64,000 nucleotides of DNA from Candidatus Latescibacterota bacterium (GCA_963662665.2 CAXXJS010000032.1:33670-97669), one strand, 5' to 3'; shown: positions 32,825-56,187, numbered from the stretch's first letter. Program-made: numbers and translations. Notes: a model not told the origin generated them from the letters alone.

Positions 32825-32853
32825 TTGACTTTTAACAACCCTTATGATATACT
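32825..32853 (+). promoter_or_regulatory. Sigma70-type promoter of the nuo cluster
   Basis: TTGACT-N17-TATACT with TGn extended -10. Confidence 0.75.
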
Positions 32854-35462: not shown

Positions 35463-35509
35463 GCGGCGTTTACGCGATTCGCAGTCTCACGTTCCGGGAA
35501 TATTTCAAT

Positions 35510-35989: not shown

Positions 35990-36009
35990 CACAATCGATT
36001 AAAGCGCGT

Positions 36010-37347
36010 ATGCCTGAAGAATACAAAATCATCACCGGACTTTTCGGCGTCGAAGGCCTCCGGAATATAGACGTCTACAGGGCCCATGGCGGATATGCAG
36101 CCATTGAGAAGGCCTTTGGAATGTCGCAAGACGAGGTAATTGACGAGGTAAGGGAGTCGTCACTTGCCGGACGGGGAGGCGCATGGTTTCCGGCCGGAGT
36201 CAAATGGGGGTTCATGCCGAAGGAACCCGGGGAGCCCAGCTATCTCTGTGTGAATGCCGACGAGAGCGAGCCGGGCACGTTCAAGGACCGGCACCTGATG
36301 GAGCAGAATCCGCATCAGATGCTCGAGGGTGCCATCATCGCATCCTACGCGATGCGGGTGAGCGTGGCATACGTCTATATCCGCGGCGAAATGTTCGAAG
36401 CCAGGAAAATCGTGGAACAGGCGATCGCCGAAGCGCGGGAGGCGGGATACATCGGCCGGGACATTCTGGGCTCGGGCTACGACCTGGAGGTCTATACCCA
36501 TCCCGGTGCGGGAGCCTATATCTGCGGCGAGGAAATGGGCCTGATCCAGTCTCTTAACGGCAACCGCGCCGAGCCGCGCGCAAAACCGCCGTTTCCCGCC
36601 CAGCAGGGCGTTTTCGAGCTGCCCACCACGGTGAACAACGTGCAGACGCTGTCATACGTGCCCCATATCCTGAACCGGGGCGCGGACTGGTTCAAAGGAA
36701 TCGGAAGCGAACGGTTTCCGGGTACGTTCATTTTCTGCGTGAGCGGGCACGTGAATAATCCGGGCATGTTCGAACTGGAAACCGGCGCCGCCACAATGCG
36801 CCAGATTGTGGAGGATTTCGCGGGCGGGGTGCGCAACGGGCGTCAATTGAAAGCGGTGATTCCGGGCGGAGCGTCAACGCCGCCGATGACGCCCGACCAG
36901 ATCGATATTGTGTTGGATCCGTCGAATTTCCTGGCGCCGGGCGGCGGCGACTTCCAGGGGATGTTCGGCACGGGCGGGATCATCGTGATGGACGAAACAA
37001 CGTGCATGGTCGACGCGTTGTTGAATTTCATGGTCTTTTTCGCCCACGAGTCCTGTGGCCAATGTACGCCATGCCGTGAGGGATGCCCCTGGGCGCGCGA
37101 TATTGTCTCGCGTATTGAAAATGGTCGGGCGAAACCGGACGACCTGGATACACTGCTTGACGTCGCCCATAATGTCGGGCCGTTTATGTGCCCGCCTTCG
37201 AGGCTGACAACCATATGCGGCTTCGGCGGGGCCTTTGCGAATCCGATCCACGGATTTGTACAGACGTTCCGCAGCGAGTTCGAGGCCCACATAGAAGAAG
37301 GAAGATGCCCCATTCACCAGGACAAATCCATACGGGTACCGGGGTAA
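36010..37347 (+). CDS. nuoF: NADH-quinone oxidoreductase subunit F
   Basis: GRGGA, NADESEPGTFKDR, GAGAYICGEE, KPPFPA, ESCGQCTPCREG. Confidence 0.96.
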   Translation: MPEEYKIITGLFGVEGLRNIDVYRAHGGYAAIEKAFGMSQDEVIDEVRESSLAGRGGAWFPAGVKWGFMPKEPGEPSYLCVNADESEPGTFKDRHLMEQNPHQMLEGAIIASYAMRVSVAYVYIRGEMFEARKIVEQAIAEAREAGYIGRDILGSGYDLEVYTHPGAGAYICGEEMGLIQSLNGNRAEPRAKPPFPAQQGVFELPTTVNNVQTLSYVPHILNRGADWFKGIGSERFPGTFIFCVSGHVNNPGMFELETGAATMRQIVEDFAGGVRNGRQLKAVIPGGASTPPMTPDQIDIVLDPSNFLAPGGGDFQGMFGTGGIIVMDETTCMVDALLNFMVFFAHESCGQCTPCREGCPWARDIVSRIENGRAKPDDLDTLLDVAHNVGPFMCPPSRLTTICGFGGAFANPIHGFVQTFRSEFEAHIEEGRCPIHQDKSIRVPG

Positions 37348-37354
37348 ACCAAGG

Positions 37355-38971
37355 ATGCCTACATTCAACATAGATGGCAGTGAAGTCGAGATCGTGCCTG
37401 GAAAGAATGTGCTTCAAACCGCGATCGACAACGGGATATACGTTCCTCATTATTGCTACCACCCGGGGTTGAGCGCACCCGCGAACTGCCGCATGTGCCT
37501 TGTGGAGACCGAGATGGGAGGCCGTCGCAGTCTCGGACCTTCCTGCTCGATCATGCCCGCGGAAGGTATGGTTGTGGATACGCAGTCGGACGTCGTAAAA
37601 GAGAACCAGAGTGCCGTGATGGAATTCCTTCTGGTGAATCATCCCCTGGACTGTCCGGTGTGCGATCAGTCCGGCGAGTGCGAACTGCAGGATTACAGCT
37701 ATACCTATGGTTCCGACAGGAGCCGGTTCCACGAGAAGAAGCTGGTGCAGCCCAAGAAAGATATCGGCAGGCACGTGCTGCTGTATTCCGACCGGTGCAT
37801 CCGGTGTACCCGCTGTATCCGGTTCTGCGACGAGATTTCGGGCACGGGTGAACTGGGGTACTTCAATCGGGGGGTCTATAACGAAATCGACGTGTTTCCC
37901 GGGGCCCGGATGGACAATCGCCTGTCGGGCAATACCGTGGATATCTGTCCGGTAGGCGCGCTGCTGGATAAGTCCTTTCTTTTCAAGCAGCGCGTTTGGT
38001 TTCTTAAATCGGTCGACACGATCTGCCCGGGATGCAGCACGGGCTGCAATATCCGGGCCGATTACAACAATGAACGGATCTACCGGCTGGTGCCGCGTCA
38101 GAATCCGGACGTAAACGAGTACTGGATGTGCGACGACGGCCGCCACGGCTGGGGCTATGTACATGGTGAGGACCGCCTGTTGTTTCCCATGCTGGGGCGC
38201 GGCGATGAGCAGGAACTGGCGTTGTGGGAGGTTGCGCTGGACGCGGCGAAGGAGGGATTCGAACGCGTTCGGGCGGAATACGGCAACGGCGCGGTGGCGG
38301 GGATCGCGTCCGCGCATCTGACCAACGAAGAGCATTATCTGTTCGGCACCCTCTTCCAGAGCGGGCTGGCTGGCGGTCCCGTCGCGGTCCGTACCAGGGT
38401 CAGCGACGAGGGCGACGTGGTGTTCAAGGGCGGATTCACCATCCACGCGGATAAGTCTCCGAATACGCGCGGCGCGCGGACGATACTTTCGGGGTTAGGG
38501 TTATCTCCAACGGAGACGTCGGAGATCTGGCGCGGCGTGGCGGAAGGTCGGATCAAGGGTCTCTATCTCCTGGGCGGCGATCCCCTGGAGTCGATGTCGG
38601 ACGCGGAGCGGGCCGCCCTCGGATCCCTTGATTTTCTGGTTGTTCAGGATGTCCGGGCCCACAGTTGGACCGCGATGGCGGACGTTATCCTGCCGGGCGC
38701 GGCGTTCATCGAAAAGGACGGTACGTTTACAAACGTCGACGGACGGGTGCAGCGGATACGGCAGGGCCTGGCGCCCGTCGGCGACGCGAGGGCGGACTGG
38801 GAGATCCTGCGGGACGTCAATCGGGTCCTGGGGGGCACGGCCGCTCAGACCGGTATCGAGGAAATCTGGGCCGACATGGCGAATACCATCGCGGCGTTCA
38901 AGGAGATTGACTGCAACGAGGTTGGAGATCAGGGCAGTCCGTTCGTTGAAATCGAGACAGCCGGTGCGTAG
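37355..38971 (+). CDS. nuoG: NADH-quinone oxidoreductase subunit G (short form)
   Basis: CYHP..CRMC, HPLDCPVCDQSGEC, CIRCTRC, CPVGAL, CPGCSTGC. Confidence 0.93.
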   Translation: MPTFNIDGSEVEIVPGKNVLQTAIDNGIYVPHYCYHPGLSAPANCRMCLVETEMGGRRSLGPSCSIMPAEGMVVDTQSDVVKENQSAVMEFLLVNHPLDCPVCDQSGECELQDYSYTYGSDRSRFHEKKLVQPKKDIGRHVLLYSDRCIRCTRCIRFCDEISGTGELGYFNRGVYNEIDVFPGARMDNRLSGNTVDICPVGALLDKSFLFKQRVWFLKSVDTICPGCSTGCNIRADYNNERIYRLVPRQNPDVNEYWMCDDGRHGWGYVHGEDRLLFPMLGRGDEQELALWEVALDAAKEGFERVRAEYGNGAVAGIASAHLTNEEHYLFGTLFQSGLAGGPVAVRTRVSDEGDVVFKGGFTIHADKSPNTRGARTILSGLGLSPTETSEIWRGVAEGRIKGLYLLGGDPLESMSDAERAALGSLDFLVVQDVRAHSWTAMADVILPGAAFIEKDGTFTNVDGRVQRIRQGLAPVGDARADWEILRDVNRVLGGTAAQTGIEEIWADMANTIAAFKEIDCNEVGDQGSPFVEIETAGA

Positions 38972-38979: not shown

Positions 38980-40020
38980 ATGGATTACGCGTTTGAGAGT
39001 GCCATCAAGATCATTGTCGTATTCGCCGGGATTCTGGGCGGGGTAGCCTATCTCGTCCTGGCCGAGCGCAAGATCAGCGCGTATATCCAGAACCGTCTGG
39101 GTCCGAACCGGGTGGGACCGTGGGGATTGCTTCAGCCTCTCGCCGACGGTCTCAAGTTCCTGTTCAAAGAAGATGTGATTCCCCGGCATGTGAACCGGTT
39201 CGTGTATCTGGCCGCACCACCGGCGATTCTCGTCCCCGCGTTGATGGGATTTGCCATTGTGCCGTTCGGCGATACCATTACCCTGTGGGACCACGAAGTC
39301 AGGCTGCAGATCGCCGATGTGAATATCGGCATCCTTTACCTTCTGGCACTGGCCTCCCTGGGCGTCTACGGTGTGGTGCTGGGCGGGTGGGCGTCCAACA
39401 ACAAGTATGCCCTGCTGGGCGGGCTGCGGGCAGCCGCTCAGATGATCAGCTACGAGCTGGCGCTGGGGCTGTCGCTGGTTGGCGTCCTGATGGCGGCCGG
39501 CACCCTGCAACTGGATGAAATCGTCAGGCAGCAGTCGGAACAGACGCTGTTCGGATTTTTACCGGGATGGAACGTGTTCACACAGCCCCTCGGGTTCGTG
39601 TTGTTCACCGTGGCCGCGTTCGCCGAGAGCAACCGGCTGCCGTTCGATCTGCCGGAATCCGAACAGGAACTGGTGGCCGGATATCACGCCGAGTACAGCA
39701 GTATGAAGTTCGCCATGTTTTTCATGGCCGAGTACGCCCACATGATAACGGCGTCCGCCGTCATCGCGACACTGTTCTTCGGCGGCTGGCATATGCCCTG
39801 GCTGGTGGATCCCGGGAGTACAACGATCGGCGCCAGTCTGCTCAAAGTGCTCGCGTTTCTGGTCAAGACCGGATTCTTCATGTTCCTGTTCCTGTGGGTG
39901 CGCTGGACCCTTCCGCGTTTTCGATACGATCAGGTGATGTGGTTGGGGTGGAAGGTGCTGCTGCCGCTGGCGCTTCTGAACGTCTTCTTAACCGGGTTGT
40001 TTTTGACGCTTACGTACTGA
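38980..40020 (+). CDS. nuoH: NADH-quinone oxidoreductase subunit H
   Basis: ERK..Q.RLGPNRVG, AQMISYE, AESNRLPFDLPE, LPRFRYDQ. Confidence 0.97.
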   Translation: MDYAFESAIKIIVVFAGILGGVAYLVLAERKISAYIQNRLGPNRVGPWGLLQPLADGLKFLFKEDVIPRHVNRFVYLAAPPAILVPALMGFAIVPFGDTITLWDHEVRLQIADVNIGILYLLALASLGVYGVVLGGWASNNKYALLGGLRAAAQMISYELALGLSLVGVLMAAGTLQLDEIVRQQSEQTLFGFLPGWNVFTQPLGFVLFTVAAFAESNRLPFDLPESEQELVAGYHAEYSSMKFAMFFMAEYAHMITASAVIATLFFGGWHMPWLVDPGSTTIGASLLKVLAFLVKTGFFMFLFLWVRWTLPRFRYDQVMWLGWKVLLPLALLNVFLTGLFLTLTY

Positions 40021-40042
40021 ACGGCGCCCTGCCGGAGGGAGA

Positions 40043-40570
40043 ATGGAGCAGATCTTCTTTTTTATTCTTGCCGCAGTCGCCCTGGTTGCGTCAGTTCTCC
40101 TGGTGGCGTTTCGAAATCCGGTTTACAGTGCCCTGTCCCTTGTGGCCGCGTTCTTTGCCCTGGCAGGGCTTTTTGTTTTGCTCAACGCCTATTTCCTGGC
40201 GGCGGTTCAGATAATCGTGTATGCCGGCGCAATTATGGTACTCTTCCTGTTCGTGATTATGCTTCTGAACCTGGGTCATTCCAACGCGCTCGAGCAACTC
40301 GCGGGTAAATACCGGCGGGTCGCCGTGGTACTGTTGTCGGCGGTATTGGTTACGCAACTGGGCTTCATGGCAGGACGGCATTGGGCGGGCACACCGGCAT
40401 CCGAAGACGTGCCGTTGTTTACAGACAACATCAATGCCATCGGCAAACTGCTATATACCAGATTTCTGTTTCCCTTCGAAGTGGTCTCCGTGATTCTGCT
40501 GGTGGCATTGATCGGGGTGATGGCGATGGTGAAACGGGATCGCGAAGGCGAAGAGAGCCAACCGCGCTAG
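40043..40570 (+). CDS. nuoJ: NADH-quinone oxidoreductase subunit J
   Basis: [30 protein letters not shown]. Confidence 0.96.
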
Positions 40571-40647
40571 ATTTCCACGCGCAGTCTAACCTTCCGGTTT
40601 TCGTCATTGAGACGGATTCGGGATGGGTCCTTAAAATTGAGATCGAG

Positions 40648-40953
40648 ATGGCCGTTCCTGTTTCCTATTACCTGATTCTGAGTGCAATGCTGTTCGCAAT
40701 CGGCGTGACGGGCGTGCTGATTCGCCGCAACGCGATTGTGATTTTCATGTGTATCGAATTGATGCTGAACGCCGTCAATTTGCTGTTCGTCACAATGGCG
40801 CGGTATATGGGTTCGGGTTCCGGGCAGGTATTCGTGTTCTTCGTGATGGCGGTGTCCGCCGCCGAAGTGGCGGTGGGGCTGGCGATAATCATTGCACTAT
40901 ACAGGAACCGACAGACGTTGGACGTGGGCGAGGTGAATTTGCTGAAATGGTAG
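40648..40953 (+). CDS. nuoK: NADH-quinone oxidoreductase subunit K
   Basis: [26 protein letters not shown]. Confidence 0.97.
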
Positions 40954-41013
40954 GCGCAGTGGGAATCTGCGACGTCAATCCCGTTTTCTCCGTATGAATT
41001 GAGTGGGCCTGCA

Positions 41014-42873
41014 ATGTTGACCGTGGTTATTCTGATCATTCTCTTTCCGCTCGCCGGTGCTGCCGTCAACGGACTGTTCGGGTATCGATTGCGGGAGGTA
41101 TCCGGGTATATCGGCACGGCGGCGGTCGGCCTCTCGTGGTTGCTGTCCCTGCGCGTTCTGTTCTGGGTGACGGGCGGCGGAGAATTGAACGAAGACGTGT
41201 ACGCCTGGATATGGGCCGGGGCGTTCAGGGCCTCTGTGGGGTTCCAGGTGGATGCGCTTTCGACCCTCATGATTGTGACGGTTACGACAATCTCATTCCT
41301 GATCCATGTGTATTCCTTAGGATATATGCGCAACGACCCGGGTTTTGCCAGGTTCTTTGCCTATCTGAACCTTTTTGTGTTTTCGATGCTGGTGCTGGTG
41401 CTTGCGAACAATTATCTGTTGATGTTCGTGGGATGGGAAGGCGTGGGCCTGTGTTCCTATCTCCTGATCGGCTTCTGGTACGAGCGAAAGTCCGCATCGG
41501 ATGCAGGCAAGAAGGCGTTTATTGTGAACCGGATCGGGGATTTCGGCTTCCTGCTCGGCATTTTTCTGATGGTAAGTTACCTGGGCACCGTGCAGTACAC
41601 CGAGGTATTCGAAAAGGCGCCGCTGATGTTGTCCACGGGGGTCGCAACGGCAATTGCGCTTCTGCTTTTCGTTGGAGCCTGCGGCAAGTCGGCCCAGTTT
41701 CCGCTATACGTCTGGCTGCCCGATGCAATGGAAGGTCCAACGCCCGTGAGTTCATTGATCCACGCCGCCACGATGGTCACGGCGGGGGTCTATATGGTGG
41801 CGCGCTCCAACGTACTCTATACGCTCGCACCCACCGCGGGCGCGGTGGTGGCCTGGGTCGGCGTGGTCACTGCGTTGCTGGCCGCAACCATCGCGCTGGT
41901 GAATACCGACATCAAGAGGGTTCTGGCTTATTCAACGGTCAGCCAACTCGGGTACATGTTCATTGGCGTGGGGGTGGGCGCGTATACAGCCGGAATCTTC
42001 CACCTGTTCACGCACGCGTTTTTCAAGGGATTGATGTTTCTGGCCGCGGGCAGTGTGATGCACGCGATGCAGGACGAACTGGATATGCGGAAGATGGGCG
42101 GGCTGCTGGGCAAGATGCGGGTAACCGGCGTCACGTTCTGGATAGGCGCGCTCGCCATTTCGGGAATTCCGCCGCTGGCCGGATTCTGGAGCAAGGATGA
42201 AATCCTGGTGAGTGCGTACCGCTCGGGGAATGTGGCGATCTGGTCTCTCGGTGTCGCGGGGGCGGTCCTGACGGCGTTTTATATGTTCCGGCTGATCTTC
42301 ATGACTTTCCATGGACGACCCCGGGATCAACGTCTTTACGACCACGCTCACGAATCGCCGTTGAATATGACCGCACCGCTTGCGGTACTGGCGCTGGGTT
42401 CGGCCGTGGTGGGTTTTGTGGGGGTGCCGCCGGGGCATGGCTGGATAGACGCGTTCCTGAGCGACTCCGCGGGCGGGGCCCACGCCACGGCATCCGGTGC
42501 ATTGTCCGGGGGGATGCTGGTGGGTATTTCCATACTCGCGGGTCTGCTGGGAATCGGATTTGCGTACCGGATGCACAGAGCGGATCGGCTGGGTGCAAAG
42601 GCCACGAATTCACTTCATGGGCTGCTGGTTCGCAAGTGGTACGTCGACGAGATTTATCACGCCCTTTTCGTCCGTCCAATTCATCAACTTTCGCTGGTAC
42701 TGGCGCGTGTTTTTGATGCGATGGTGGTGGATGGAATCGCGAACGGACTGGGGTTGCTGGTGAAAGGCGCGGGCTGGGTGGTTACCCGCTTTCAGTCCGG
42801 CAATGCGCCCACGTATGCGCTTTGGATGGTGATTGGCGTGGTTGCGGTACTGTACTATGTATCGGGGAATTGA
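41014..42873 (+). CDS. nuoL: NADH-quinone oxidoreductase subunit L
   Basis: GWEGVGLCSYLLIGFW, GKSAQFPL..WLPDAMEGPTPVS, HAFFK, GFWSKD. Confidence 0.97.
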   Translation: MLTVVILIILFPLAGAAVNGLFGYRLREVSGYIGTAAVGLSWLLSLRVLFWVTGGGELNEDVYAWIWAGAFRASVGFQVDALSTLMIVTVTTISFLIHVYSLGYMRNDPGFARFFAYLNLFVFSMLVLVLANNYLLMFVGWEGVGLCSYLLIGFWYERKSASDAGKKAFIVNRIGDFGFLLGIFLMVSYLGTVQYTEVFEKAPLMLSTGVATAIALLLFVGACGKSAQFPLYVWLPDAMEGPTPVSSLIHAATMVTAGVYMVARSNVLYTLAPTAGAVVAWVGVVTALLAATIALVNTDIKRVLAYSTVSQLGYMFIGVGVGAYTAGIFHLFTHAFFKGLMFLAAGSVMHAMQDELDMRKMGGLLGKMRVTGVTFWIGALAISGIPPLAGFWSKDEILVSAYRSGNVAIWSLGVAGAVLTAFYMFRLIFMTFHGRPRDQRLYDHAHESPLNMTAPLAVLALGSAVVGFVGVPPGHGWIDAFLSDSAGGAHATASGALSGGMLVGISILAGLLGIGFAYRMHRADRLGAKATNSLHGLLVRKWYVDEIYHALFVRPIHQLSLVLARVFDAMVVDGIANGLGLLVKGAGWVVTRFQSGNAPTYALWMVIGVVAVLYYVSGN

Positions 42874-43035
42874 GAAGCTGCATTAAAACCCCCAGCGGTC
42901 TTCGCGCGGCTGCAAAGGCGTCAGCCGGCGTTGGACAAATCCAGCTGTATCTTAGATACGGCCGGATTCGTCCGCCTTGACCGTCACTTTTTCGCTCGCG
43001 CTCTGGAACTCGCCGGGAATTTTGACACAGCTTCT
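42873..43035. mobile_element. Degenerate MITE-like element between nuoL and nuoM
   Basis: Imperfect TIRs AGAAGCTGCATTAAAACCCCC / GGGAATTTTGACACAGCTTCT; internal hairpin. Confidence 0.5.
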
Positions 43036-43066
43036 GAGAAGCTGTACGAGACAGGGAACTGAACCT

Positions 43067-44587
43067 ATGCCTGGACTCCTTACAGGCCTGATCTTTATAC
43101 CGCTGATCGGCGGCGTGTTGGTTCTGCTTCTGGGTCGCGGCAGAGACGGGTTCAGCCGCGGGCTCGCCCTGGCGGTCGCTCTGGTGAATCTGCTGTTGTC
43201 CGCTTTGCTATATGCCAATTTCAAAGCAGACTCCCCGCAGATGCAGTTTGTGGAAAGGACGGAGTGGGTGGGGTCGTTTGGCATCTCCTACTTCGTGGGA
43301 ATCGACGGGATCAGTCTGTTGCTGGTACTGGTGACCACCCTGCTCACGTTTCTGGCAATCCTCGCTTCATGGACGTCAATTACATCCCGGGTTCGGGAGT
43401 ATATGGCCTCGATGCTGTTGCTGGAGACCGGGATGGTAGGGGTGTTTTGCGCCCTGGACCTGTTCCTCTTCTACGTATTCTGGGAGGCCATGCTGATTCC
43501 AATGTATCTATTGATCGGCGTCTGGGGGGGTGAACGCCGGATCTATGCGGCGGTGAAATTCGTGCTGTTTACCCTGGCTGGCAGTCTGCTGATGCTCGTA
43601 GCGATTGTCTATCTGGGTCTGCAGTTCGGGACCTTTGACCTCCTCGTCCTTCAGAAAATGACCTATCTGCATCCGCAGCAGCACTGGCTCTTCCTGGCTT
43701 TCTTCCTGAGTTTCGCCATCAAGGTACCGATGTTTCCACTACATACCTGGCTGCCGGACGCGCACGTGGAGGCGCCAACGGCGGGGAGCGTGATCCTTGC
43801 GGGCGTACTGCTTAAGATGGGCACCTACGGATTGATCCGCTTCTGCCTGCCATTGTTCCCGATGGCTGCGTTGTACTTCACTCCCTACATAATGGCACTG
43901 TCTGTGATCGGCATCGTATACGGCGCACTTGTGGCTATGGTACAAACCGATATCAAGAAACTGGTGGCGTATTCAAGCGTGAGCCACCTTGGCTTCGTGG
44001 TCCTGGGGATTTTCGCGATGAACGCACAGGGAATGCAGGGCGGCATTATTCAGATGGTGAACCACGGGCTGTCAACCGGGGCACTGTTCCTGATTGTTGG
44101 AATGATATACGAACGCCGGCACACACGGCTGATCGCCGACTTTGGCGGTCTGGCCAAATCCATTCCCGTATTCGCTACGTTTTTCCTTATTACAACGCTT
44201 TCGTCCATCGGACTGCCGGGGTTGAACGGGTTCGTGGGTGAGTTCCTGATCCTTCTGGGGGCGTTTAAGGCAAACAAGGTATTCGGCATCATTGCCGCTT
44301 CGGGTGTCGTCCTGGCGGCCGTGTACATGTTGTGGATGTTCCAGCGCGTGGTATGGGGCGAGGTAAAAGATGAACGAAATCGGAAGCTGCCGGACCTGTC
44401 CATCCGCGAGTGGTGCATATTGACGCCGCTGGTGGTACTGATGTTCTGGATCGGCGTGTACCCGGGCGCGTTATTGAAAAAGACCGAATTGTCGGCGAAA
44501 CTCGTGATAGAACAGGTGCGCATTCGGCAGATTGAAAGCTTGAACGAATTCCTGGCGACGGATCGCTCACGCGAGAAATCCAGATAG
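43067..44587 (+). CDS. nuoM: NADH-quinone oxidoreductase subunit M
   Basis: [44 protein letters not shown]. Confidence 0.97.
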
Positions 44588-44622
44588 ATCGATCCGGACA
44601 CCAGGGTCGGAGGAGGCGGGGT

Positions 44623-45108
44623 TTGAGAATTCTGCTGAGTCTGGGCGTTGTGCTGTTCGGCGTATGGCTGCTCTGGTCCGGGCATTATTCCATCGACCAT
44701 GCGCTGGTTCTCGTGCTTGGAATCGTCTCATGCCTGGCGGTTGTCGGCATTGTCCGGCGTATGGGCATCGTCGATTCCGAGGGACATCCGGTTCACCTGG
44801 CAGGTCGTGTGCTCCGATATGCCCCGTGGTTGCTGCTTGCCATTCTCCGGTCCAACGTTGACGTGGTTTTACGAATACTGAATCCACGACTGCCCATCAG
44901 CCCTGCCCTGATTCGTATCAGGGCAACCCAGAAGACCGCGCTGGGGAAGGTCATCTACGCCAACTCCATTACGCTGACTCCCGGGACGGTTTCGGTGGAC
45001 GTGGAAGACGACCTGATTCTTGTTCACGCGCTCTCACGGGAGAGCGCCCGTGAACTCGCGGACGGCGAGATGGACCGGCGTGTCCTGGCAATGGAGGACG
45101 CTACCTGA
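44623..45108 (+). CDS. mrpE: Mrp Na+/H+ antiporter subunit E
   Basis: ANSITLTPGT, LVHAL; RBS GGAGG before TTG. Confidence 0.93.
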   Translation: MRILLSLGVVLFGVWLLWSGHYSIDHALVLVLGIVSCLAVVGIVRRMGIVDSEGHPVHLAGRVLRYAPWLLLAILRSNVDVVLRILNPRLPISPALIRIRATQKTALGKVIYANSITLTPGTVSVDVEDDLILVHALSRESARELADGEMDRRVLAMEDAT

Positions 45109-45395
45109 TGTTCGCGACGGCAATGGCGGCAATCCTGATTACGATGATACTGGCTCTGGTTAGAGCGTTCGCCGGTCCAACGGTCTACGACCGGGTCCTG
45201 GCCGCGAATATGTTCGGGACCAAGATGATCCTCCTTATTGCGGTATTGGGATTTCTCACCGGTCGGCCGGATTTTCTCGACCTCGCGCTGATCTACGTCC
45301 TGTTGAACTTCATCGGGACGTTTGCCGTACTTAAGTACGTTCAGTACGGCAATTTCGGGTCGGCAGACGGCGAGCGCGGAGAGACACCCGAATGA
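45108..45395 (+). CDS. mrpF: Mrp subunit F
   Basis: GPTVYDRVLA, DLALIY..LNFIG. Confidence 0.93.
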   Translation: MFATAMAAILITMILALVRAFAGPTVYDRVLAANMFGTKMILLIAVLGFLTGRPDFLDLALIYVLLNFIGTFAVLKYVQYGNFGSADGERGETPE

Positions 45396-45709
45396 TCCTT
45401 CACGACGTCGTTAGCTGGGGCTGCCTGCTCCTGGGGTCGTTCCTTTGCATCGTGGGCGGCATCGGGCTGATCAGACTTCCCGACTTTTACAGCCGGATGC
45501 ACGGCGCCGGAGTTACCGATACTTACGGCGCCGGTCTTGTGCTTGTCGGGCTGATGGTACAGGCGGGACTCAGTATGGTCACGGTCAAGCTGTTTCTGAT
45601 CCTTCTGCTCCTCTTTCTGACCGGTCCGTCATCCACCCACGCGGTTGCCAAGGCTGCCTTCACCTCCGGGTTGAAACCGGCGCTTCAGAGGGATGACCGC
45701 CCAACATGA
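45392..45709 (+). CDS. mrpG: Mrp subunit G
   Basis: RLPDFYSRMH, P.STHAVAKAA. Confidence 0.93.
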   Translation: MILHDVVSWGCLLLGSFLCIVGGIGLIRLPDFYSRMHGAGVTDTYGAGLVLVGLMVQAGLSMVTVKLFLILLLLFLTGPSSTHAVAKAAFTSGLKPALQRDDRPT

Positions 45710-46275
45710 TCGAACTGATTGACATTGTCCTGCTGGCGCTTCTTGCGGCTACAGCCGTCGCCGTCGTGCTGATCCGCAATCTGCTTGCTTCGGTCATCCT
45801 GGCCGGGATTTTCAGCTTGCTTTCCGCCGGGTTGTTTACCGTGATGGACGCCGTTGACGTGGCTTTTACGGAGGCCGCCGTGGGCGCCGGCATCTCGACC
45901 GTGCTGCTGATCGGGACCCTCATGCTCACAACCGGGGAGGAAAAGAAGCCGTCCAGGCCGTCTCCATTGCCCCTTCTGGCAGTCCTGGCGACGGGGGCGG
46001 TCCTGATTTACGGCACGCTGGATATGCCGCGATTCGGCGATGCCGGGGCACCGGTACATGCACACGTCGCGCCGGAATATCTCAAAGATACCGTGCCGCA
46101 CGTCAGCGGTTCCGCAAAGCGGGTCGACGTTGAGAATATTGTGACGTCGGTGCTTGCCAGCTACAGGGGATACGATACGCTCGGGGAGACCACGGTGATC
46201 TTTTGCGCCGGTATCGGGGTGTTGCTCTTGCTGAAGCGGGCCGGGCCGGGCCGCAACCGGGAGGACGGTCGGTGA
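45706..46275 (+). CDS. DUF4040/MrpB-like subunit (MrpA C-terminal-like)
   Basis: AVDVAFTEAAVGAG, NIVTSVLASYRGYDTLGET. Confidence 0.9.
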   Translation: MIELIDIVLLALLAATAVAVVLIRNLLASVILAGIFSLLSAGLFTVMDAVDVAFTEAAVGAGISTVLLIGTLMLTTGEEKKPSRPSPLPLLAVLATGAVLIYGTLDMPRFGDAGAPVHAHVAPEYLKDTVPHVSGSAKRVDVENIVTSVLASYRGYDTLGETTVIFCAGIGVLLLLKRAGPGRNREDGR

Positions 46276-46691
46276 AGAATCAGATCATTCCGCGTGTAAT
46301 CGCCAAGCTATTCATTCCACTGATCCTCCTGTTTGCGCTCTACGTCCAGTTTCACGGCGATTTCGGGCCGGGGGGCGGATTCCAGGCCGGTGTGATCTTT
46401 GCAGCCGGTTTTGTGCTGTACACGCTGATATACGGCCTGAACGAGGCGCAGCGGGTGGCCAGACCCGCCGTCGTGGAAATTGTCATTGCCGCCGGTCTGC
46501 TCCTGTTTGCCTGCACCGGCGTCGTGGGGATGATGAAGGGTGGCCGCTACCTGGACTATGGCGTGCTGGGATCCGATCCGGTGGGCGGTCAGCATCTCGG
46601 AATTCTGTTGATCGAACTCGGAGTTGGTATCACCGTGGCTTCGGTGATTATCGGGGTCTTCTTCGCCTTTGTCGGCCGGAAACAACCATGA
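46272..46691 (+). CDS. mrpB: Mrp subunit B
   Basis: HGDFGPGGGFQAG, ELGVG; GTGA overlap with the previous gene. Confidence 0.92.
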   Translation: MKNQIIPRVIAKLFIPLILLFALYVQFHGDFGPGGGFQAGVIFAAGFVLYTLIYGLNEAQRVARPAVVEIVIAAGLLLFACTGVVGMMKGGRYLDYGVLGSDPVGGQHLGILLIELGVGITVASVIIGVFFAFVGRKQP

Positions 46692-47047
46692 CGGCATTCC
46701 CGGGTTTATATAACTACTGGTTCGTTATCGTCCTGATGATGATCGGGTTCTATGCGGTGATCACCAGCGGCAACCTCGTCAAGAAACTCATCGGCCTGAA
46801 TATCTTTCAGACTTCGGTCTTCCTGTTCTACATCAGCATGGGCAGGGTCTCCGGCGGGAGCGCGCCGATAATCGCAGAGGGGGTCCGGAGTTATTCGAAC
46901 CCGCTGCCGCACGTACTCATTCTCACGGCAATCGTCGTCGGTATCGCCACGACCTCCCTCGGGTTGGCGCTCGTCGTGCGGATTCAGGAAGCCTACGGCA
47001 CAATCGAGGAGGATGAAATCTACGGTCAGGGCGGGGAGTTGCCCTGA
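46688..47047 (+). CDS. mrpC: Mrp subunit C
   Basis: NLVKKLIGL, NPLPHVLILTAIVV. Confidence 0.94.
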   Translation: MTAFPGLYNYWFVIVLMMIGFYAVITSGNLVKKLIGLNIFQTSVFLFYISMGRVSGGSAPIIAEGVRSYSNPLPHVLILTAIVVGIATTSLGLALVVRIQEAYGTIEEDEIYGQGGELP

Positions 47048-48564
47048 TGGCCGACCACCTGCCCATTCTGCAAATCGTGGTTCCTCTTATATCCGCGCCG
47101 GTCTGCCTGCTCCTGCGAAAGAGATTGCTGGCCTGGGCCTTCGCCACGGCTGTCGCGTGGACCGCGCTTGGGGTCGCCGCGCTGTTGCTGATACGGGTAC
47201 TGGATGCCGGTACCGTCTCGTATGCGCTCGGAAACTGGAGCGCCCCGTGGGGAATCGAGTATCGGATTGACGCGGTCAATGCGTTCGTATTGCTCCTGGT
47301 GGCCTTCATTGGCGCAGTCGTGCTCTTGTACGCGCCTCCCAGCGCGGCTCGAGAAATCTCCCACGACCGCCACTACCTGTTTTACGCGGCATATCTCCTG
47401 TGCCTGACGGGCCTCCTCGGCATCGCCATCACCGGAGACGCGTTCAACCTGTTTGTCTTTCTCGAAATTTCCTCCCTGTCAACGTATGCGCTGATCAGCC
47501 TTGGAAGAGACCGCCGCGCCCTGACGGCTTCTTACCAGTACCTGGTTATGGGGACCGTCGGTGCGACGTTCATTCTGATCGGCGTCGGGCTCCTCTATAT
47601 GGCAACGGGGACCCTGAATATGGCGGACCTTGCGGTCCGTCTGGGGCCGGTCCTGGACACCAGGACTGTGTTGGCGGCATTCGCGTTTCTGGGTGTCGGC
47701 CTGTGCTTGAAGCTGGCGCTTTTTCCACTCCACATGTGGCTGCCAAACGCGTATTGTTATGCGCCATCGTTAATAACTGCCTTTCTTGCCGCAACGGCGA
47801 CCAAGGTCTCCATCTATGTCCTCGTTCGATTCATTTTCACCATTTTCGGACCCCGATTCGCGTTCGAGACGGTTGGGATCCACGTGGTGTTGCTGCCACT
47901 TTCGCTCCTTGGTATTTTCGCGGCTTCAACAGTCGCCATATTCCAAACCAACATTAAGCGCATGCTCGCCTATTCCAGCGTTGCCCAGGTCGGCTACATT
48001 ATGCTGGGCGTAGGCCTTGTGTCGGTGAGCGGCGCCGGACCGGACGTCCGGTATGGACCGGGATCGTTGAACGGTCTCACCGCGGGAATCGTCCACCTGT
48101 TCAATCACGCCGTTATGAAAGGCGCACTGTTCCTGGGTATGGGTTGTATCGCCCTCCGCGTGGGCTCGGTGCAACTCGACGATATGCACGGTCTCGGCCG
48201 TCGAATGCCGGTGACGACGGCCGCCGTTGTGCTGGGCGGACTCAGCATGATCGGCGTTCCTCTTACGGTGGGCTTCATCAGCAAGTGGTACCTTGTTCTG
48301 GCGGCCCTCGAAAAGGGCTGGTGGCCCATCGCGGTTCTCGTCCTCCTGGGTTCCCTGCTTGCGGTGATCTATATATGGCGGGTGGTTGAGGTAGCCTATT
48401 TCCGCGAGCCCCCTGGGCCCGTCGGGGTGAGCGAGGCGCCGCTGCTGATGCACGTCCCCATGTGGATTCTGATTGCAGCCACCCTCTACTTCGGCGTCTC
48501 GACGTCCCTCACGGTGGGCGTTGCCCGGCAGGCCGCCGGATGGCTGATGGGAATTGCGCCATGA
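47047..48564 (+). CDS. mrpD: Mrp subunit D (copy 1)
   Basis: GDAFNLFVFLEI, LKLALFPLHMWLP.AY, KRMLAYSS, GFISKW. Confidence 0.93.
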   Translation: MADHLPILQIVVPLISAPVCLLLRKRLLAWAFATAVAWTALGVAALLLIRVLDAGTVSYALGNWSAPWGIEYRIDAVNAFVLLLVAFIGAVVLLYAPPSAAREISHDRHYLFYAAYLLCLTGLLGIAITGDAFNLFVFLEISSLSTYALISLGRDRRALTASYQYLVMGTVGATFILIGVGLLYMATGTLNMADLAVRLGPVLDTRTVLAAFAFLGVGLCLKLALFPLHMWLPNAYCYAPSLITAFLAATATKVSIYVLVRFIFTIFGPRFAFETVGIHVVLLPLSLLGIFAASTVAIFQTNIKRMLAYSSVAQVGYIMLGVGLVSVSGAGPDVRYGPGSLNGLTAGIVHLFNHAVMKGALFLGMGCIALRVGSVQLDDMHGLGRRMPVTTAAVVLGGLSMIGVPLTVGFISKWYLVLAALEKGWWPIAVLVLLGSLLAVIYIWRVVEVAYFREPPGPVGVSEAPLLMHVPMWILIAATLYFGVSTSLTVGVARQAAGWLMGIAP

Positions 48565-50027
48565 CCGCTTCGGATGCCACGCTGCTGGCCGTTCTGCTGC
48601 CCCTTCTCGGCGCTGGGCTGATCGGTCTTCTCGGGCAAAGGCCCAATCTGCGCGAGGCGGCCACACTGGCCACGGGCGCCGTGCTGTTTTTCGTGGTGCT
48701 TACGCTGGTTCCCCACGTCCTTTCAGGGGCGAGGCCGGGGATAGAAATCCTCGAGGTGCTGCCGGGCCTCGCGCTGGCGTTCGAAGTTGAACCCCTGGGC
48801 ATGCTCTTCGGGTTGATTGCCTCGGGGCTCTGGATCGTGACGTCTCTGTATTCGATCGGCTACATGCGCGGGCATCACGAACCCAACCAGACCGTTTTTT
48901 ACGTTTTCTTTGCGGTGGCCATTACGGGCGCCCTGGGCGTTGCATTCGCCCGCAATATGTTCACGTTGTTCATCTTCTATGAGATTCTGACCCTTTCGAC
49001 CTATCCGCTGGTCACCCACCATCGGACGAAGGAGGCGCTCCGGTCCGGCAGGATCTACATGGGCATTCTGCTCGGCACGTCGGTCGGGTTGATGCTGCTG
49101 GCGGTGGTGTGGACCTGGAATCTGACGGGTACCCTGGAATTCGAACCCGGCGGGATCCTCGCGGGCAAAGCCAGTCCGGCCGTGGTGGGCATCCTGCTGG
49201 CGCTCTACGCGTTTGGTACCGGCAAGGCAGCACTGATGCCGTTCCACCGCTGGCTGCCGGCGGCGATGGTGGCGCCCACGCCTGTCAGCGCCCTGCTGCA
49301 CGCGGTGGCCGTTGTCAAAGCAGGCGTGTTTACAGTGATGAAAATCGTGGTCTACATCTTTGGCATCGATCTGCTCAGCAGCAGCGGGATGAGCGTGTGG
49401 CTGGCATACGTTGCCGCCGCAACCCTGCTGATTGCGTCCCTGATTGCACTAACGAAAGATAATCTCAAGGCGCGGCTCGCTTATTCCACAGTCAGCCAGT
49501 TGTCCTACGTGGTACTCGGCGCGGCTCTTGCCAACAACTGGGGGATCATTGGCGGTTCCATGCATATCGCGATGCACGCTTTTGGCAAGATCACGCTGTT
49601 CTTCTGTGCCGGCGCCATTATGGTGGCCGCACACAAGACCGAAATCAGCGACATGGCCGGCATCGGGAAGACAATGCCGATTACCATGTTCGCCTTCTTT
49701 ATCGGGTCGCTGAGTGTGATCGGCCTGCCCCCGCTTGGCGGGTCGTGGAGCAAGTGGTACCTGGCGCTCGGCGCGGTGGAGGCGGACCGAATCGTTCTCG
49801 TGGCCGTGTTGATGATCAGTTCGCTCTTGAACGTCGCGTACCTGATGCCGATCGTCGCCCGCGCGTTTTTCACGGCGCCCTCCTCGACGCCCGCCGGCCC
49901 GTCTCACGTCAGGGAGGCCCCGGCGTTATGCGTTGTACCGCTGTGTCTGACGGCGCTGGGATGCCTGGCGCTCTTCTTCTGCGCCGAAGACATCTACCGG
50001 TTGCTGGCGCCTATTGCACAACCCTGA
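48561..50027 (+). CDS. MrpD/A-family antiporter subunit (copy 2)
   Basis: FIFYEILT, GKAALMPFHRWLPAAMVAPTPVSALLHAVAVVK, LAYSTVSQL. Confidence 0.92.
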   Translation: MTASDATLLAVLLPLLGAGLIGLLGQRPNLREAATLATGAVLFFVVLTLVPHVLSGARPGIEILEVLPGLALAFEVEPLGMLFGLIASGLWIVTSLYSIGYMRGHHEPNQTVFYVFFAVAITGALGVAFARNMFTLFIFYEILTLSTYPLVTHHRTKEALRSGRIYMGILLGTSVGLMLLAVVWTWNLTGTLEFEPGGILAGKASPAVVGILLALYAFGTGKAALMPFHRWLPAAMVAPTPVSALLHAVAVVKAGVFTVMKIVVYIFGIDLLSSSGMSVWLAYVAAATLLIASLIALTKDNLKARLAYSTVSQLSYVVLGAALANNWGIIGGSMHIAMHAFGKITLFFCAGAIMVAAHKTEISDMAGIGKTMPITMFAFFIGSLSVIGLPPLGGSWSKWYLALGAVEADRIVLVAVLMISSLLNVAYLMPIVARAFFTAPSSTPAGPSHVREAPALCVVPLCLTALGCLALFFCAEDIYRLLAPIAQP

Positions 50028-50038
50028 CGGACGAAGCC

Positions 50039-50284
50039 ATGGAAGACAAGAACATGAACCGGCTCAAAGGGGCCGGAAACGTAAGGAAAATCAGCCTGGC
50101 GCTCTATGTGGTCTGCGCCCTGCTGTTGCTGGCGGATCTGTTTCTGCACAAGCATACCCATATCAGCGCCGAGCAGTGGTTCGGATTTTACGGGTTGTAC
50201 GCGTTACTCGTCTGTGTCGTGCTGGTGTTAGCGGCCCGGGGGTTGCGCGCAATCCTGGGCCGCAAGGAAGACTATTATGATTGA
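50039..50284 (+). CDS. Small two-TM membrane protein within the mrp operon
   Basis: GFYGLY..R.EDYYD pattern; overlaps the next gene's start. Confidence 0.8.
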   Translation: MEDKNMNRLKGAGNVRKISLALYVVCALLLLADLFLHKHTHISAEQWFGFYGLYALLVCVVLVLAARGLRAILGRKEDYYD

Positions 50285-51968
50285 TCAGTTTCCGCCGGCC
50301 CTGATTTTCATCGTCGGGTCGTTGCTGATACCGTTTCTGCGCGGACGCTTACAGTCGGCCTATATGCTCCTGCTTCCGGTTGCCGGGTTCGTGCATATGC
50401 TCGGACTGGCCCCGGGAGAATACTGTCAGATCGGAATCTTTGGCTATACCCTTAACCTGGTCCGAATCGACAAGCTCAGCCTGGTCTTTGGCTATATCTT
50501 CCATATCGCCGCCTTTCTGGGCGTCATCTATGCCCTCCATCTGAAGGACAACACGCAGCACGTCGCAGGCCTGTTCTACGCGGGCGGCGCCATCGGCGCC
50601 CTGTTTGCCGGCGACCTGATTACCCTTTTCGTCTTTTGGGAACTCACCGCGATATCTTCGGTGTTTCTGATCTGGAGCCGCCGGACCGACCGCGCCTGTG
50701 CCGCAGGGATGCGCTACCTGATGGTCCAGGTCTGTTCGGGGATGATTCTGCTTGCCGGCATTCTGGTCCACCTGCGGGAGACGGGTTCGATCGCCTTTAC
50801 CGGGTTGGAGCTGAACAGTCTGGGAACAACCCTGATCTTTATCGCCTTCGGGATCAAGTGCGCCTTTCCGCTGCTCCACAACTGGCTCTCGGACGCCTAT
50901 CCCGAGGCAACAGTGACCGGAACCGTGTTCCTGAGCGCGTTTACAACCAAGCTGGCTGTCTATGCGCTTGCCCGGGGCTTTCCCGGTACGGAAATCCTGA
51001 TCCCGATTGGCGCCGCAATGACCGTGTTTCCCATGTTTTACGCGGTCATCGAGAATGACCTCAGGCGGGTGCTGACCTACAGCCTGAATATCCAGTTGGG
51101 ATTTATGGTGGTTGGCATCGGGATCGGAACGGAGATGTCTCTTAACGGAACGGCGGGGCACGCTTTCAACCATGTCCTGTACAAAGCCCTGTTATTTATG
51201 TCGATGGGCGCGGTAATGTACCGAACGGGCACGGCCAATGCATCGGAATTGGGCGGGTTGTACAAATCAATGCCTCTGACAACGGTGTTCTGTATCATTG
51301 GCGCGGCGTCGATTTCGGCGTTTCCGTTTTTCAACGGCTTTGTAAGTAAGTCGTTCATTCTCTGGGAGGTGGCCGACGGACACTACATCCTGACGTGGGT
51401 GGCGTTGTTGTTCGCTTCCGCCGGTGTGTTGCTCTATACGGGCATCAGGATTCCCTACCATGCCTTTTTCGGCGGCGATTCGGGATTCCGCTGCAGGGAG
51501 GCGCCATTGAATATGCTTGTTGCCATGGGCGCAACCGCCGTTCTGTGCGTCCTGATCGGCATCATCCCGAAACCGTTTTACGATATTCTGCCGTATGCCG
51601 TGAACTACGAACCCTATACGGTGGACCACGTGGTTACCCAGTACCAGCTGTTGTTCTTCTCAGCTCTGGCATTCCTGGTATTGAAGCGAACCGGAATTTA
51701 TCCGTCCGTACTCAGGTCCGTTAACCTGGACACCGACTGGGTGTATCGGCGTCTTCTGCCGGGTATCGTCCGGGTTGTCGCGCGGGAGGGCGGTACACTG
51801 GGCAACTCGATCCTGCGCGGCGGAAGGACGCTGGCCGCGGCAACCGTTTCCGGCTGCCGTCAATACCACGGTCCCCAGGGCATCCTCGCACAAACCTGGC
51901 TCACCGGTAGCGCCGTGTTGATCGTGACGATCTTCCTGGCCGTCATTCTGATCTATTGCTTCCTGTGA
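50277..51968 (+). CDS. MrpD/A-family antiporter subunit (copy 3)
   Basis: FVFWELTA, IKCAFPLLHNWL.DAYPEAT, NGFVSKS. Confidence 0.92.
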   Translation: MIDQFPPALIFIVGSLLIPFLRGRLQSAYMLLLPVAGFVHMLGLAPGEYCQIGIFGYTLNLVRIDKLSLVFGYIFHIAAFLGVIYALHLKDNTQHVAGLFYAGGAIGALFAGDLITLFVFWELTAISSVFLIWSRRTDRACAAGMRYLMVQVCSGMILLAGILVHLRETGSIAFTGLELNSLGTTLIFIAFGIKCAFPLLHNWLSDAYPEATVTGTVFLSAFTTKLAVYALARGFPGTEILIPIGAAMTVFPMFYAVIENDLRRVLTYSLNIQLGFMVVGIGIGTEMSLNGTAGHAFNHVLYKALLFMSMGAVMYRTGTANASELGGLYKSMPLTTVFCIIGAASISAFPFFNGFVSKSFILWEVADGHYILTWVALLFASAGVLLYTGIRIPYHAFFGGDSGFRCREAPLNMLVAMGATAVLCVLIGIIPKPFYDILPYAVNYEPYTVDHVVTQYQLLFFSALAFLVLKRTGIYPSVLRSVNLDTDWVYRRLLPGIVRVVAREGGTLGNSILRGGRTLAAATVSGCRQYHGPQGILAQTWLTGSAVLIVTIFLAVILIYCFL

Positions 51969-52088
51969 GCGGGAGAAGGTAGTAACAAACAACAACCATA
52001 AAAACAGTTAGATAAAATATCTTTTTTACGGTGAGGAATTGCAGACTCCCGCAATTTCCCGCCCGCGCGGCAATATCGAACTTTAGGC

Positions 52089-52117
52089 TTGACTTTTTTA
52101 TCGCATCCCTGTTAATT
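52089..52117 (+). promoter_or_regulatory. Putative internal promoter upstream of nuoN-atp
   Basis: TTGACT followed 16-17 nt later by GTTAATTAAT in a 184-bp AT-rich spacer; weak -10. Confidence 0.45.
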
Positions 52118-52152
52118 AATGCGGCTAATAATTATCACCGAGGACCTCTGCG

Positions 52153-53601
52153 TTGCCTGATCTGAACTGGATTGTTCTCGTTCCCTCCCTGATTGTCGCG
52201 GCGAGTGCGTTGTTGATCCTGTGCATCGACATCGTCAAGCCCGAGAATCGAGGTGTCGGAGCGGCGTACGCGGCCATTATCGGAACGAGCCTGGCGGCGG
52301 TCGCATGCGCGGGTCTCTGGGGACGGTCCGAGCAGGCCTTTGGCGGAATGCTCGCGCTGGACAACTTCGCGCTCTTTTCCAACGTCATATTTGCGGTTGG
52401 CACCGGGCTGACCATATTTGTTTCCACAGGATATCTGAAGCGGGAACACAGCAGCCGCAGCGAGTACTATCTGCTGCTGCTCACGGCCACGCTGGGCATG
52501 ATGCTCATGGCGGCCGGGACGGACCTGATCGTGATCTTCCTGGGTCTGGAACTGATGTCTCTGTCGCTCTATATCCTGGTCGGATTCATCACGTCGCGCT
52601 CGGCCTCCAACGAGGCCTCGCTGAAATATCTGTTGCTGGGGGCCTTTGCAACCGGGTTTCTTCTCTACGGGATCGCCCTCATATACGGGTCCACCGGATC
52701 CACTAACCTGCAACAGGTCGGGGCGATGCTCTCCCGCCGGGCGGATAGCGGCAGCCTGATGTTGTACGCCGGGATGGTGTTGCTGGTTGTGGGCTTTGCA
52801 TTCAAGGTGGCGGCGGTTCCTTTTCACATGTGGGCCCCCGACGTCTACGAAGGGGCGCCCGCGGCGGTTACCGCGTTTCTCTCGGCGGGCCCCAAGGCGG
52901 CCGCCTTCGTGGCGTTTTTGCGCGTGCTGATGGTATCTCTTGAGTCGCTGAAGGCGGAGTGGACGGCGGTGCTCTGGGTTCTGGCCGTGTTGACAATGAC
53001 CGTCGGCAACCTGAGCGCCCTTGGGCAGCGGAGCCTTAAACGGATGCTGGCCTATTCCAGCGTCGCCCATGCCGGTTACGTATTGGTTGCGCTCACCGCT
53101 GCCAGCGGGAAGGGCATTTCCGCGGCATTGTTTTATCTGTTTGCGTATACGTTTATGAATATCGGCGCCTTTGCGGTCCTGATTCTGGTCGCGCGGAAGG
53201 GCGAGGAGAACCTGGATATATCGGATTACGCTGGGCTGGGGTTCAAACATCCGGTTCTCGGACTGACCATGACGCTGTTTATGCTCTCGCTGGCGGGGCT
53301 GCCGCCCACTGCCGGATTCTTCGGAAAGTTCTACATATTCCGGGCTGCCATAGACGCGGGTCTGGTTTCACTCACTATTATCGGCGTGCTCAACAGCCTT
53401 GTCTCGGTCTATTTCTATCTCGGTATCGTCGTAAGTATGTATATGAGACAACCAGCGGATGACGAGCCCATTGTGACGTTTCCCGTTCTCGCACGTACCG
53501 CGCTGTTGGTGACGTCCGCGGCAACACTTTATATAGGCCTCGCTCCGTCGCGATTTCTCGAGTTGGCCAGACAGACGGTGGGCAATCTGATTGGGAGTTA
53601 A
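52153..53601 (+). CDS. nuoN: NADH-quinone oxidoreductase subunit N
   Basis: GLELMSL, SNEASLKY.LLG, FKVAAVPFHMWAPDVYEGAP, GLPPTAGFFGK. Confidence 0.96.
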   Translation: MPDLNWIVLVPSLIVAASALLILCIDIVKPENRGVGAAYAAIIGTSLAAVACAGLWGRSEQAFGGMLALDNFALFSNVIFAVGTGLTIFVSTGYLKREHSSRSEYYLLLLTATLGMMLMAAGTDLIVIFLGLELMSLSLYILVGFITSRSASNEASLKYLLLGAFATGFLLYGIALIYGSTGSTNLQQVGAMLSRRADSGSLMLYAGMVLLVVGFAFKVAAVPFHMWAPDVYEGAPAAVTAFLSAGPKAAAFVAFLRVLMVSLESLKAEWTAVLWVLAVLTMTVGNLSALGQRSLKRMLAYSSVAHAGYVLVALTAASGKGISAALFYLFAYTFMNIGAFAVLILVARKGEENLDISDYAGLGFKHPVLGLTMTLFMLSLAGLPPTAGFFGKFYIFRAAIDAGLVSLTIIGVLNSLVSVYFYLGIVVSMYMRQPADDEPIVTFPVLARTALLVTSAATLYIGLAPSRFLELARQTVGNLIGS

Positions 53602-53929: not shown

Positions 53930-53945
53930 CGTCCGGAGGTGGAAC

Positions 53946-54490: not shown

Positions 54491-54510
54491 GAAAGAAGGG
54501 GTTTGATTCA

Positions 54511-56172: not shown

Positions 56173-56187
56173 TTTCCGGAGCAGAGA

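Follow-up and report, generated by a model that had tools for sequence, protein, structure and literature searches.

A ten-gene Mrp operon between nuoM and nuoN of Latescibacterota: a probable separate antiporter in a slot of changing content

The DNA analysed here (the window) is a stretch of 64,000 nucleotides from a metagenome-assembled genome (MAG) of a Candidatus Latescibacterota bacterium (GCA_963662665.2, CAXXJS010000032.1:33670-97669; G000:C32:33670-97669 in our notation). The source MAG comprises 4.86 Mb in 66 contigs and is 92% complete. Pfam and NCBIfam profile searches of the window's proteins identified, on the plus strand, a complex I (nuo) gene cluster that encloses a cassette for an Mrp-type cation/proton antiporter. 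The genes follow one another in the order nuoA-CD-E-F-G-H-J-K-L-M, mrpE-F-G-DUF4040-B-C-D1-D2-small-D3, nuoN and the atp operon. The searches thus bore out, in content and order, the ten-gene Mrp operon that an earlier reading made from the sequence alone (hereafter the sequence-only reading) had placed between nuoM (42977..44587; TIGR01972, 648 bits) and nuoN (52153..53601; TIGR01770, 460 bits). A search of the open full-text literature, which leaves subscription-journal papers and supplements outside, turned up no report of an entire Mrp operon placed between these two genes. Whether and why complex I handles sodium is an old and unsettled question, on which such an arrangement bears.

The cassette spans 44623-51968, all on the plus strand. 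It opens with mrpE (44623..45108; MNHE family match), 35 bp past the nuoM stop codon, and continues with mrpF (45108-45395), mrpG (45392-45709), a gene for a DUF4040 protein that corresponds to the C-terminal part of MrpA (45706..46275; MbhD and MbhE domains, PRK12504), mrpB (46272..46691) and the NuoK-like mrpC (46688..47047). Three antiporter-like subunits carrying PF00361 are encoded by mrpD1 (47047..48564; best match PRK12662, below its cut-off), mrpD2 (48561..50027), whose product also resembles the NuoL/MrpA-type N-terminal domain PF00662, weakly and below the cut-off, and mrpD3 (50277..51968; 563 aa, NF009310/PRK12668, 717 bits, above cut-off). A small gene of 81 codons (50039..50284, in the frame of ORF 49745-50284) lies between mrpD2 and mrpD3; its product has two hydrophobic stretches and belongs to no Pfam family. 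The ORF at 50014-50280 was discarded as the small gene, being Arg-rich, without a family match and in the wrong frame. Among 92 loci compared, the 81-aa gene was present in 66 and mrpD3 in 71; the former is a real, conserved tenth gene of this Mrp type. The junctions within the cassette are overlaps of 1, 4 or 8 nt or a spacing of 11 nt, in keeping with the mostly overlapping stop and start codons reported before. Three boundaries of the sequence-only reading had to be moved while its gene order stood: the small gene now runs from 50039 to 50284, and the starts of mrpB and mrpD2 are most likely at 46272 and 48561, because these positions create GTGA and ATGA overlaps, respectively.

Matches above the Pfam cut-offs comprised PF01899, PF04066, PF03334, PF13244 with PF20501, PF04039, PF00420 and three instances of PF00361; those above the NCBIfam cut-offs were PRK12504, PRK12508, NF005621/NF005624 and NF009310. 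The Mrp/CPA3 subunit set is therefore complete, with the antiporter-like and C-terminal parts of MrpA and with B, C, D, E, F and G. Since every family is represented, including a NuoK-like MrpC and a NuoJ-like DUF4040 protein of its own, the system would have nothing to borrow from Nuo. A single MrpE match was found in the source genome. GC content and skew gave no clear foreign signal across the cassette (GC 0.57-0.62, against 0.56-0.58 in the flanks).

Ito, Morino and Krulwich (2017; PMC5703873) distinguish Group 3 of the Mrp (CPA3) systems by irregular gene orders unlike mrpABCDEFG or mrpA'CDEFG, and the order E-F-G-A'-B-C-D-D-x-D makes the cassette a Group 3 cluster in their scheme. All subunit types, an irregular order, several mrpD genes and a short or split MrpA are common to the cassette and to Group 3. 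The example given there is the cyanobacterial mrpCD1D2EFGAB, a demonstrated Na+/H+ antiporter. The type found here differs from that example in its order, E-F-G-A'(DUF4040)-B-C-D1-D2-small-D3, in its three antiporter-like subunits and extra 81-aa protein and, in the lineage of the window, in being nested within a nuo cluster.

The two junctions of the cassette with its host cluster are unalike. The 35-bp gap between nuoM and mrpE, noted in the earlier account and found as described, contains a Shine-Dalgarno sequence, GGAGGAGG, ahead of a TTG start codon. The gap between mrpD3 and nuoN is 184 bp long and AT-rich. In a promoter and terminator scan, both gaps came out free of terminator-like and sigma-70-like sites, which agrees with the earlier remark that no obvious terminator follows nuoM. 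In family f2 (locus L044), the distance from mrpD3 to nuoN is about 20 nt. Comparison of genomes revealed a conserved non-coding element, promoter-like or regulatory in appearance, before nuoN (52087..52130, plus strand). It aligned without gaps, 20-65 nt before nuoN, in 9/9 family f1 sequences, which represent four genera and slots holding either Mrp or the alternative cassette CitMHS_2 (see below); G017, also of f1, was left out of the alignment, its own copy lying about 230 nt upstream. The invariant parts are CTTGACTTTT, then TT-ATTAA, then CTAAT. The element fails the scan's rule for a -10 motif and is recognised only through the comparison. Within it, in the window (52112-52119) and in relatives, TTAATTAA is perfectly palindromic and could serve to bind a regulator instead of being a -10 box. 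An 11-mer, GCTTGACTTTT, is common to the element and to the start of a promoter-like site upstream of nuoA (32825..32853, plus strand; TTGACT-17-TATACT with TG before it). This sharing is not significant taken alone, as two or more matches, with one mismatch allowed, also turned up in 14/100 shuffles. The conserved element suggests that nuoN and the atp genes may have a start of their own in f1, the family of the window, with the cassette at the 3′ end of a nuoA-M unit; read-through from the cassette into nuoN is possible.

The arrangement is neither an assembly artefact nor a peculiarity of one strain. In four sequencing runs from two studies, one run possibly being that of the MAG's own source sample, one Logan contig covers 43800-49278 and another 49249-53000, in each run with 0 differences from the window. 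The bridging of both junctions by these contigs, together with recurrence of the arrangement in the 14 other genomes of the genus, excludes misassembly, the first of the doubts raised with the sequence-only reading. Both junctions are kept in 14/14 of those genomes, several of which are single-contig assemblies, and all 15 members of the genus (g1, the source genome included) retain the arrangement though MrpE identity drops to 76%. Among 30 loci inspected, nuoM lies directly upstream of mrpE in 18 (those of the source genome, the 14 other genus members, both g2 genomes and G050) and mrpD3 directly upstream of nuoN in 17. The synteny of nuoM, mrp and nuoN extends to 19 genomes of 4 genera, and a strain-specific insertion was discarded.

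A scan across phyla, limited to one genome per species, yielded 80 loci that share the cassette's gene order, from Alphaproteobacteria, Gemmatimonadota, Planctomycetota, Myxococcota, Gammaproteobacteria and other groups. At least 1.5 kb of upstream sequence made 72 of them assessable, and in just two was nuoM found upstream: L040, which is the locus of G050, and L044, that of G038, both from Latescibacterota. The cassette is thus a widespread Mrp type that normally stands alone, as had been asserted of Mrp operons in general. In a FastTree tree of MrpD1, MrpD2 and MrpD3 from 69 loci, all Latescibacterota cassettes fell in one 14-row clade together with L090 and L061, which are not labelled Latescibacterota. 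The slot-resident cassettes were not monophyletic: those of f1 grouped together and that of G038 joined free-standing cassettes of its own family. In the 20 genomes of genus g6, Mrp is free-standing and no orthologue of the window's complex I was found, the best NuoN match reaching at most 38% identity. Two further loci showed other neighbourhoods. In G048 (L039:10000-18800), the mrp cassette directly precedes atpB and the atp operon, with neither nuoN nor nuoA-M, an arrangement that may be a remnant of the nested state after loss of nuo. In L090 (1-17400), from an unclassified MAG, a "green"-type cluster has nuoK, two MrpD-like genes that replace nuoL, and then nuoM and nuoN. A complete Mrp cassette of the window's type follows some 1.4 kb downstream of it, which makes a Nuo-Mrp neighbourhood of different architecture.

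Four features had escaped the sequence-only reading: the promoter-like element, the absence of nuoB and nuoI from the cluster, the tie between nuoN and the atp genes, and the existence of an alternative occupant of the space between nuoM and nuoN. With a threshold of E no higher than 1e-150, a NuoN orthologue was found in 30 of 168 Latescibacterota genomes; adding G019 and G050, in which only the nuoM-mrpE junction was seen, gave 32 genomes with this type of complex I. Their slot holds the Mrp cassette in 19 (the 15 of genus g1, G015, G019, G038 and G050), a single gene for a 487-aa CitMHS_2 protein in nine (G016, G017, G018, G020, G021, G041, G042, G069 and G070) and nothing in four, where nuoM and nuoN are contiguous (G051, G054, G056 and G058). 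Nothing besides Mrp or CitMHS_2 was found in the slot in these 32 genomes. The CitMHS_2 protein matches PF16980 (E 4e-186). In a search of 61 relatives, PF16980 occurred in seven, each copy immediately upstream of nuoN, and in no genome with Mrp in the slot; conversely, PF01899 (the MrpE family) was found in 0/6 of the CitMHS_2 genomes tested. The two cassettes are mutually exclusive across genomes. Elsewhere, CitMHS_2 is mostly free-standing too: in 80 metagenome loci, nuoM was upstream in six and nuoN also downstream in four.

The history of the slot was examined on a complex I tree built with IQ-TREE from seven subunits of 13 genomes (3535 columns). The three states are interleaved and at least 6 changes are needed. 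Sister pairs at 100/100 support combine different states: G015 (Mrp) with G017 (CitMHS_2), G038 (Mrp) with G042 (CitMHS_2), and G041 (CitMHS_2) with G051 (empty). Given that sister lineages hold CitMHS_2 in the slot, the presence of Mrp would mean that one antiporter cassette has taken the place of another, non-orthologous one. The CitMHS_2 state extends to the most distant family, f9, and may for this reason be the older one, which would set the direction of the replacement. The alternation of two unrelated Na+/H+ antiporter systems at one fixed site of a complex I cluster, in some cases between sister genomes, is comparative evidence of selection tying an antiporter to this enzyme, and the lineage offers matched natural variants for experimental work, with Mrp, a single-gene antiporter or an empty slot.

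Together, these data lead us to consider it likely that the window encodes a separate Mrp antiporter, housed in a conserved antiporter slot of the complex I cluster and probably expressed along with the enzyme, and that the coupling between the two is at the level of the operon, with cassettes replacing one another. The 44623-51968 cassette would be a complete, self-sufficient Group-3-type Mrp (CPA3) cation/proton antiporter filling an accessory slot in a complex I cluster of one Latescibacterota type, to which the ATP synthase operon is joined. Being encoded directly behind nuoA-M, Mrp would be synthesised alongside complex I; most likely a membrane complex of its own, it would spend the proton gradient of complex I on Na+ expulsion, in the service of Na+ and pH homeostasis. 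This interpretation draws on the gene content of the cassette, its position in the slot, its conservation, its mutual exclusivity with CitMHS_2 and the finding, described below, that neither NuoL nor the Mrp subunits are structurally adapted. The spacing is also favourable: the 35-bp interval with its Shine-Dalgarno sequence after nuoM, gaps in which the scan found no terminator-like site and the short distance to nuoN in f2. Several considerations weigh against it. Co-transcription with nuoA-M is suggested by spacing alone, and nuoN-atp may be a separate unit in f1, in which case the cassette would mark the border between two operons and not lie within a single one. The Na+/H+ specificity attributed to the cassette comes from the family annotation; Mrp systems specific for K+ or Ca2+ exist (PMC5703873). 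The CitMHS_2 slot protein, in turn, would be an NhaD-like sodium:proton antiporter by database names alone, its relatives being entered as "sodium:proton antiporter" or "Na+/H+ antiporter NhaD/arsenite permease-like". Lastly, frequent turnover of the slot (at least 6 changes among 13 genomes) is also expected from a permissive insertion site.

A stronger form of coupling can be envisaged, in which the window's menaquinone-type complex I may obligately need a dedicated Na+/H+ antiporter, supplied by two unrelated families exchanged between nuoM and nuoN in no fewer than three families of Latescibacterota. Menaquinone is the probable acceptor of the enzyme because genes of the futalosine pathway are present in the genome (PF02621, two matches) and no menA match was found there; in this it resembles Rhodothermus marinus. 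Work by Melo et al. (2005 in BBA and 2006 in BBRC) reportedly described in Rhodothermus marinus an nqo operon with an embedded Na+/H+ antiporter gene, said to lie between nqo13 (nuoM) and nqo14 (nuoN). If so, the Latescibacterota genomes with CitMHS_2 in the slot resemble that operon. The window, too, has antiporter genes between nuoM and nuoN, and differs from the single gene reported for R. marinus in holding a ten-gene Mrp complex there. An obligate antiporter would fit the proposal that complex I of R. marinus admits Na+ as it pumps H+ outwards (PMC5662883); the antiporter encoded with it, perhaps in loose association, would then recycle the Na+ that enters via complex I. For the present, we regard an obligate requirement as a tentative proposition with a rather low chance of being right.

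It is likewise improbable, to a slightly greater degree, that the insertion is neutral, the gap between nuoM and nuoN being a transcription-unit boundary that tolerates mobile cassettes functionally unconnected with complex I. In its favour are the promoter-like element conserved ahead of nuoN in f1, the repeated changes of slot state, the lack of monophyly among slot-resident Mrp cassettes and the fact that both cassettes mostly stand alone elsewhere (nuoM upstream in 2/72 Mrp loci and 6/80 CitMHS_2 metagenome loci). Against neutrality, 28/28 occupied slots hold cation/proton antiporters, drawn from two unrelated families that exclude one another across genomes; the arrangement has been kept in 15/15 genus genomes with MrpE diverging down to 76% identity, and the gaps in f2 are too short for a separate promoter.

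The sequence-only reading had offered two interpretations, co-regulation of the two systems or a hybrid Nuo-Mrp complex. Its leaning away from an elongated arm fits the NuoL and Mrp lengths and the exchanges in the slot; the hybrid itself found no support and we hold it to be quite unlikely. In such a hybrid, Mrp would dock on complex I to give a single elongated membrane arm with six antiporter-like subunits, in the manner of MBH/MBS or of the 2M and "green" variants. The idea has some appeal: six PF00361 proteins are encoded in one cluster, mrpD2 and mrpD3 are homologous to the MrpD-like pair that replaces NuoL in the green-type L090 (49% and 45% identity), and Mrp-like modules are built into complex I relatives (PMC9040806). 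According to the same paper, the 2M clusters of Nitrospira, the "green" clusters of rhizobia and Complex_I_3 of Ca. Manganitrophaceae likewise have extra PF00361/MrpD-like genes in a nuo cluster; they add or swap single pump subunits and have a longer lateral helix where a subunit is added, with a 26-aa lateral-helix insertion in complexes with an extra pump. The window, in contrast, has a whole independent Mrp set and an unchanged NuoL. The window's nuoL (40999..42873; NF005141, 765 bits) encodes 624 aa from a TTG codon, close to the 619 aa first estimated and equally ordinary, with no extension specific to any slot state. The aligned span of NuoL differs by at most 9 residues among the Mrp, CitMHS_2 and empty states, and the largest excess is in an empty-slot genome; the insertion of added-pump complexes (PMC9040806), in NuoL or MrpD2, amounts to about 26 aa. 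NuoL is present in the window, not replaced as in the green type.

The Mrp subunits show no adaptation either. Their spans match those of free-standing orthologues and are collinear with them, the exception being MrpD1 of genus g1, which is about 13-14 aa longer than in all other lineages compared. Since these include the nested cassettes of G015 and G038, the insertion is a feature of the genus and not of the nested state. In MBH and MBS of Thermococcales, as in the window, an Mrp-type module is encoded together with complex I-type subunits. MBH and MBS have one shared membrane arm, with one NuoH/J/K-like set and no duplicate subunits. The window, set against these, encodes two complete, separate sets, with NuoJ and NuoK on one side duplicated by DUF4040 and MrpC on the other. 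Finally, sister genomes with closely similar complex I either leave the slot empty or fill it with a transporter of unrelated structure. An elongated hybrid arm is not supported because NuoL is unchanged, the Mrp lengths are ordinary, both sets are complete and sisters swap slot content; six antiporter-like genes in one cluster need not mean a six-pump arm.

Na+-binding c rings of ATP synthases carry a Gln plus Glu-Ser/Thr-Thr pattern. A sodium cycle in which the separate Mrp antiporter turns the proton-motive force into a sodium gradient driving the downstream F1Fo is highly improbable: the atp operon comes after nuoN in all lineages examined and G048 has its mrp cassette directly before atpB with no nuo genes, but the c subunit, judged against that motif, has its carboxylate in ...FIEGVAL... 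and GIGIGR in its first helix, lacks the pattern and makes a sodium-coupled ATP synthase unlikely.

The atp genes extend from 53678 to 60835 on the plus strand. An ATPase_gene1/AtpZ-like gene (53678-53929) comes first and an ORF with no family given (53946-54335) separates it from atpB (54511-55317), which encodes subunit a; the genes for the c (55382-55633), gamma (58394-59245) and beta (59429-60835) subunits follow, and those for b, delta and alpha, between c and gamma, are assigned by position only.

The remaining complex I genes, again all on the plus strand, start with nuoA (33161..33514; PF00507, NF005922), whose start was set at the beginning of the family match. A nuoCD fusion follows (33690..35462; TIGR01962, TIGR01961), with no nuoB between the two. 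Profile matches identified nuoE, nuoF and nuoG, the N-module (35369..38971), and then nuoH, nuoJ and nuoK (38980..40953), with no nuoI between nuoH and nuoJ. NuoG (37355-38971) is short, at 538 aa, with a truncated molybdopterin-like domain and a score just under the TIGR01973 cut-off. The two missing genes were found on other contigs of the genome: nuoB at G000:C27:23433-23762 on the minus strand (corresponding to L162:5377-5871) and nuoI at G000:C19:49367-49738 on the plus strand (L163:5305-5802; TIGR01971, 143 bits). The only further nuoB copy, and another nuoI, lie on C34. All 14 Nuo core subunits are accordingly encoded in the genome: A, C and D fused, E-H and J-N in the window, B on C27 and I on C19. 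In relatives, too, nuoB and nuoI are absent from the orthologous nuo clusters, and the two orphan copies presumably serve the window's complex I. Both orphans sit amid iron-sulfur cluster assembly genes. The nuoB on C27 is flanked by genes for an Fe-S_biosyn/NifU protein and an Rrf2 regulator; FeS_assembly_P and NifU_N genes lie farther out. The nuoI on C19 directly precedes a NifU_N gene.

A second complex I-like cluster, 41-52% identical to that of the window, lies at G000:C34:3500-14400 (L164) and contains nuoA, B, CD, H, I, K, L, M and N. Between its CD and H genes, nuoE, nuoF and nuoG were not detected, and the enzyme for this reason appears to be of the 11-subunit type. Elsewhere in the window, a 1030-aa ORF on the minus strand (25992-29084) matched the BREX-2 PglX methyltransferase only in part and weakly (E 2e-11, well short of the cut-off); it lies in a stretch of lower GC content, about 0.51-0.53, at 22-30 kb of the window.

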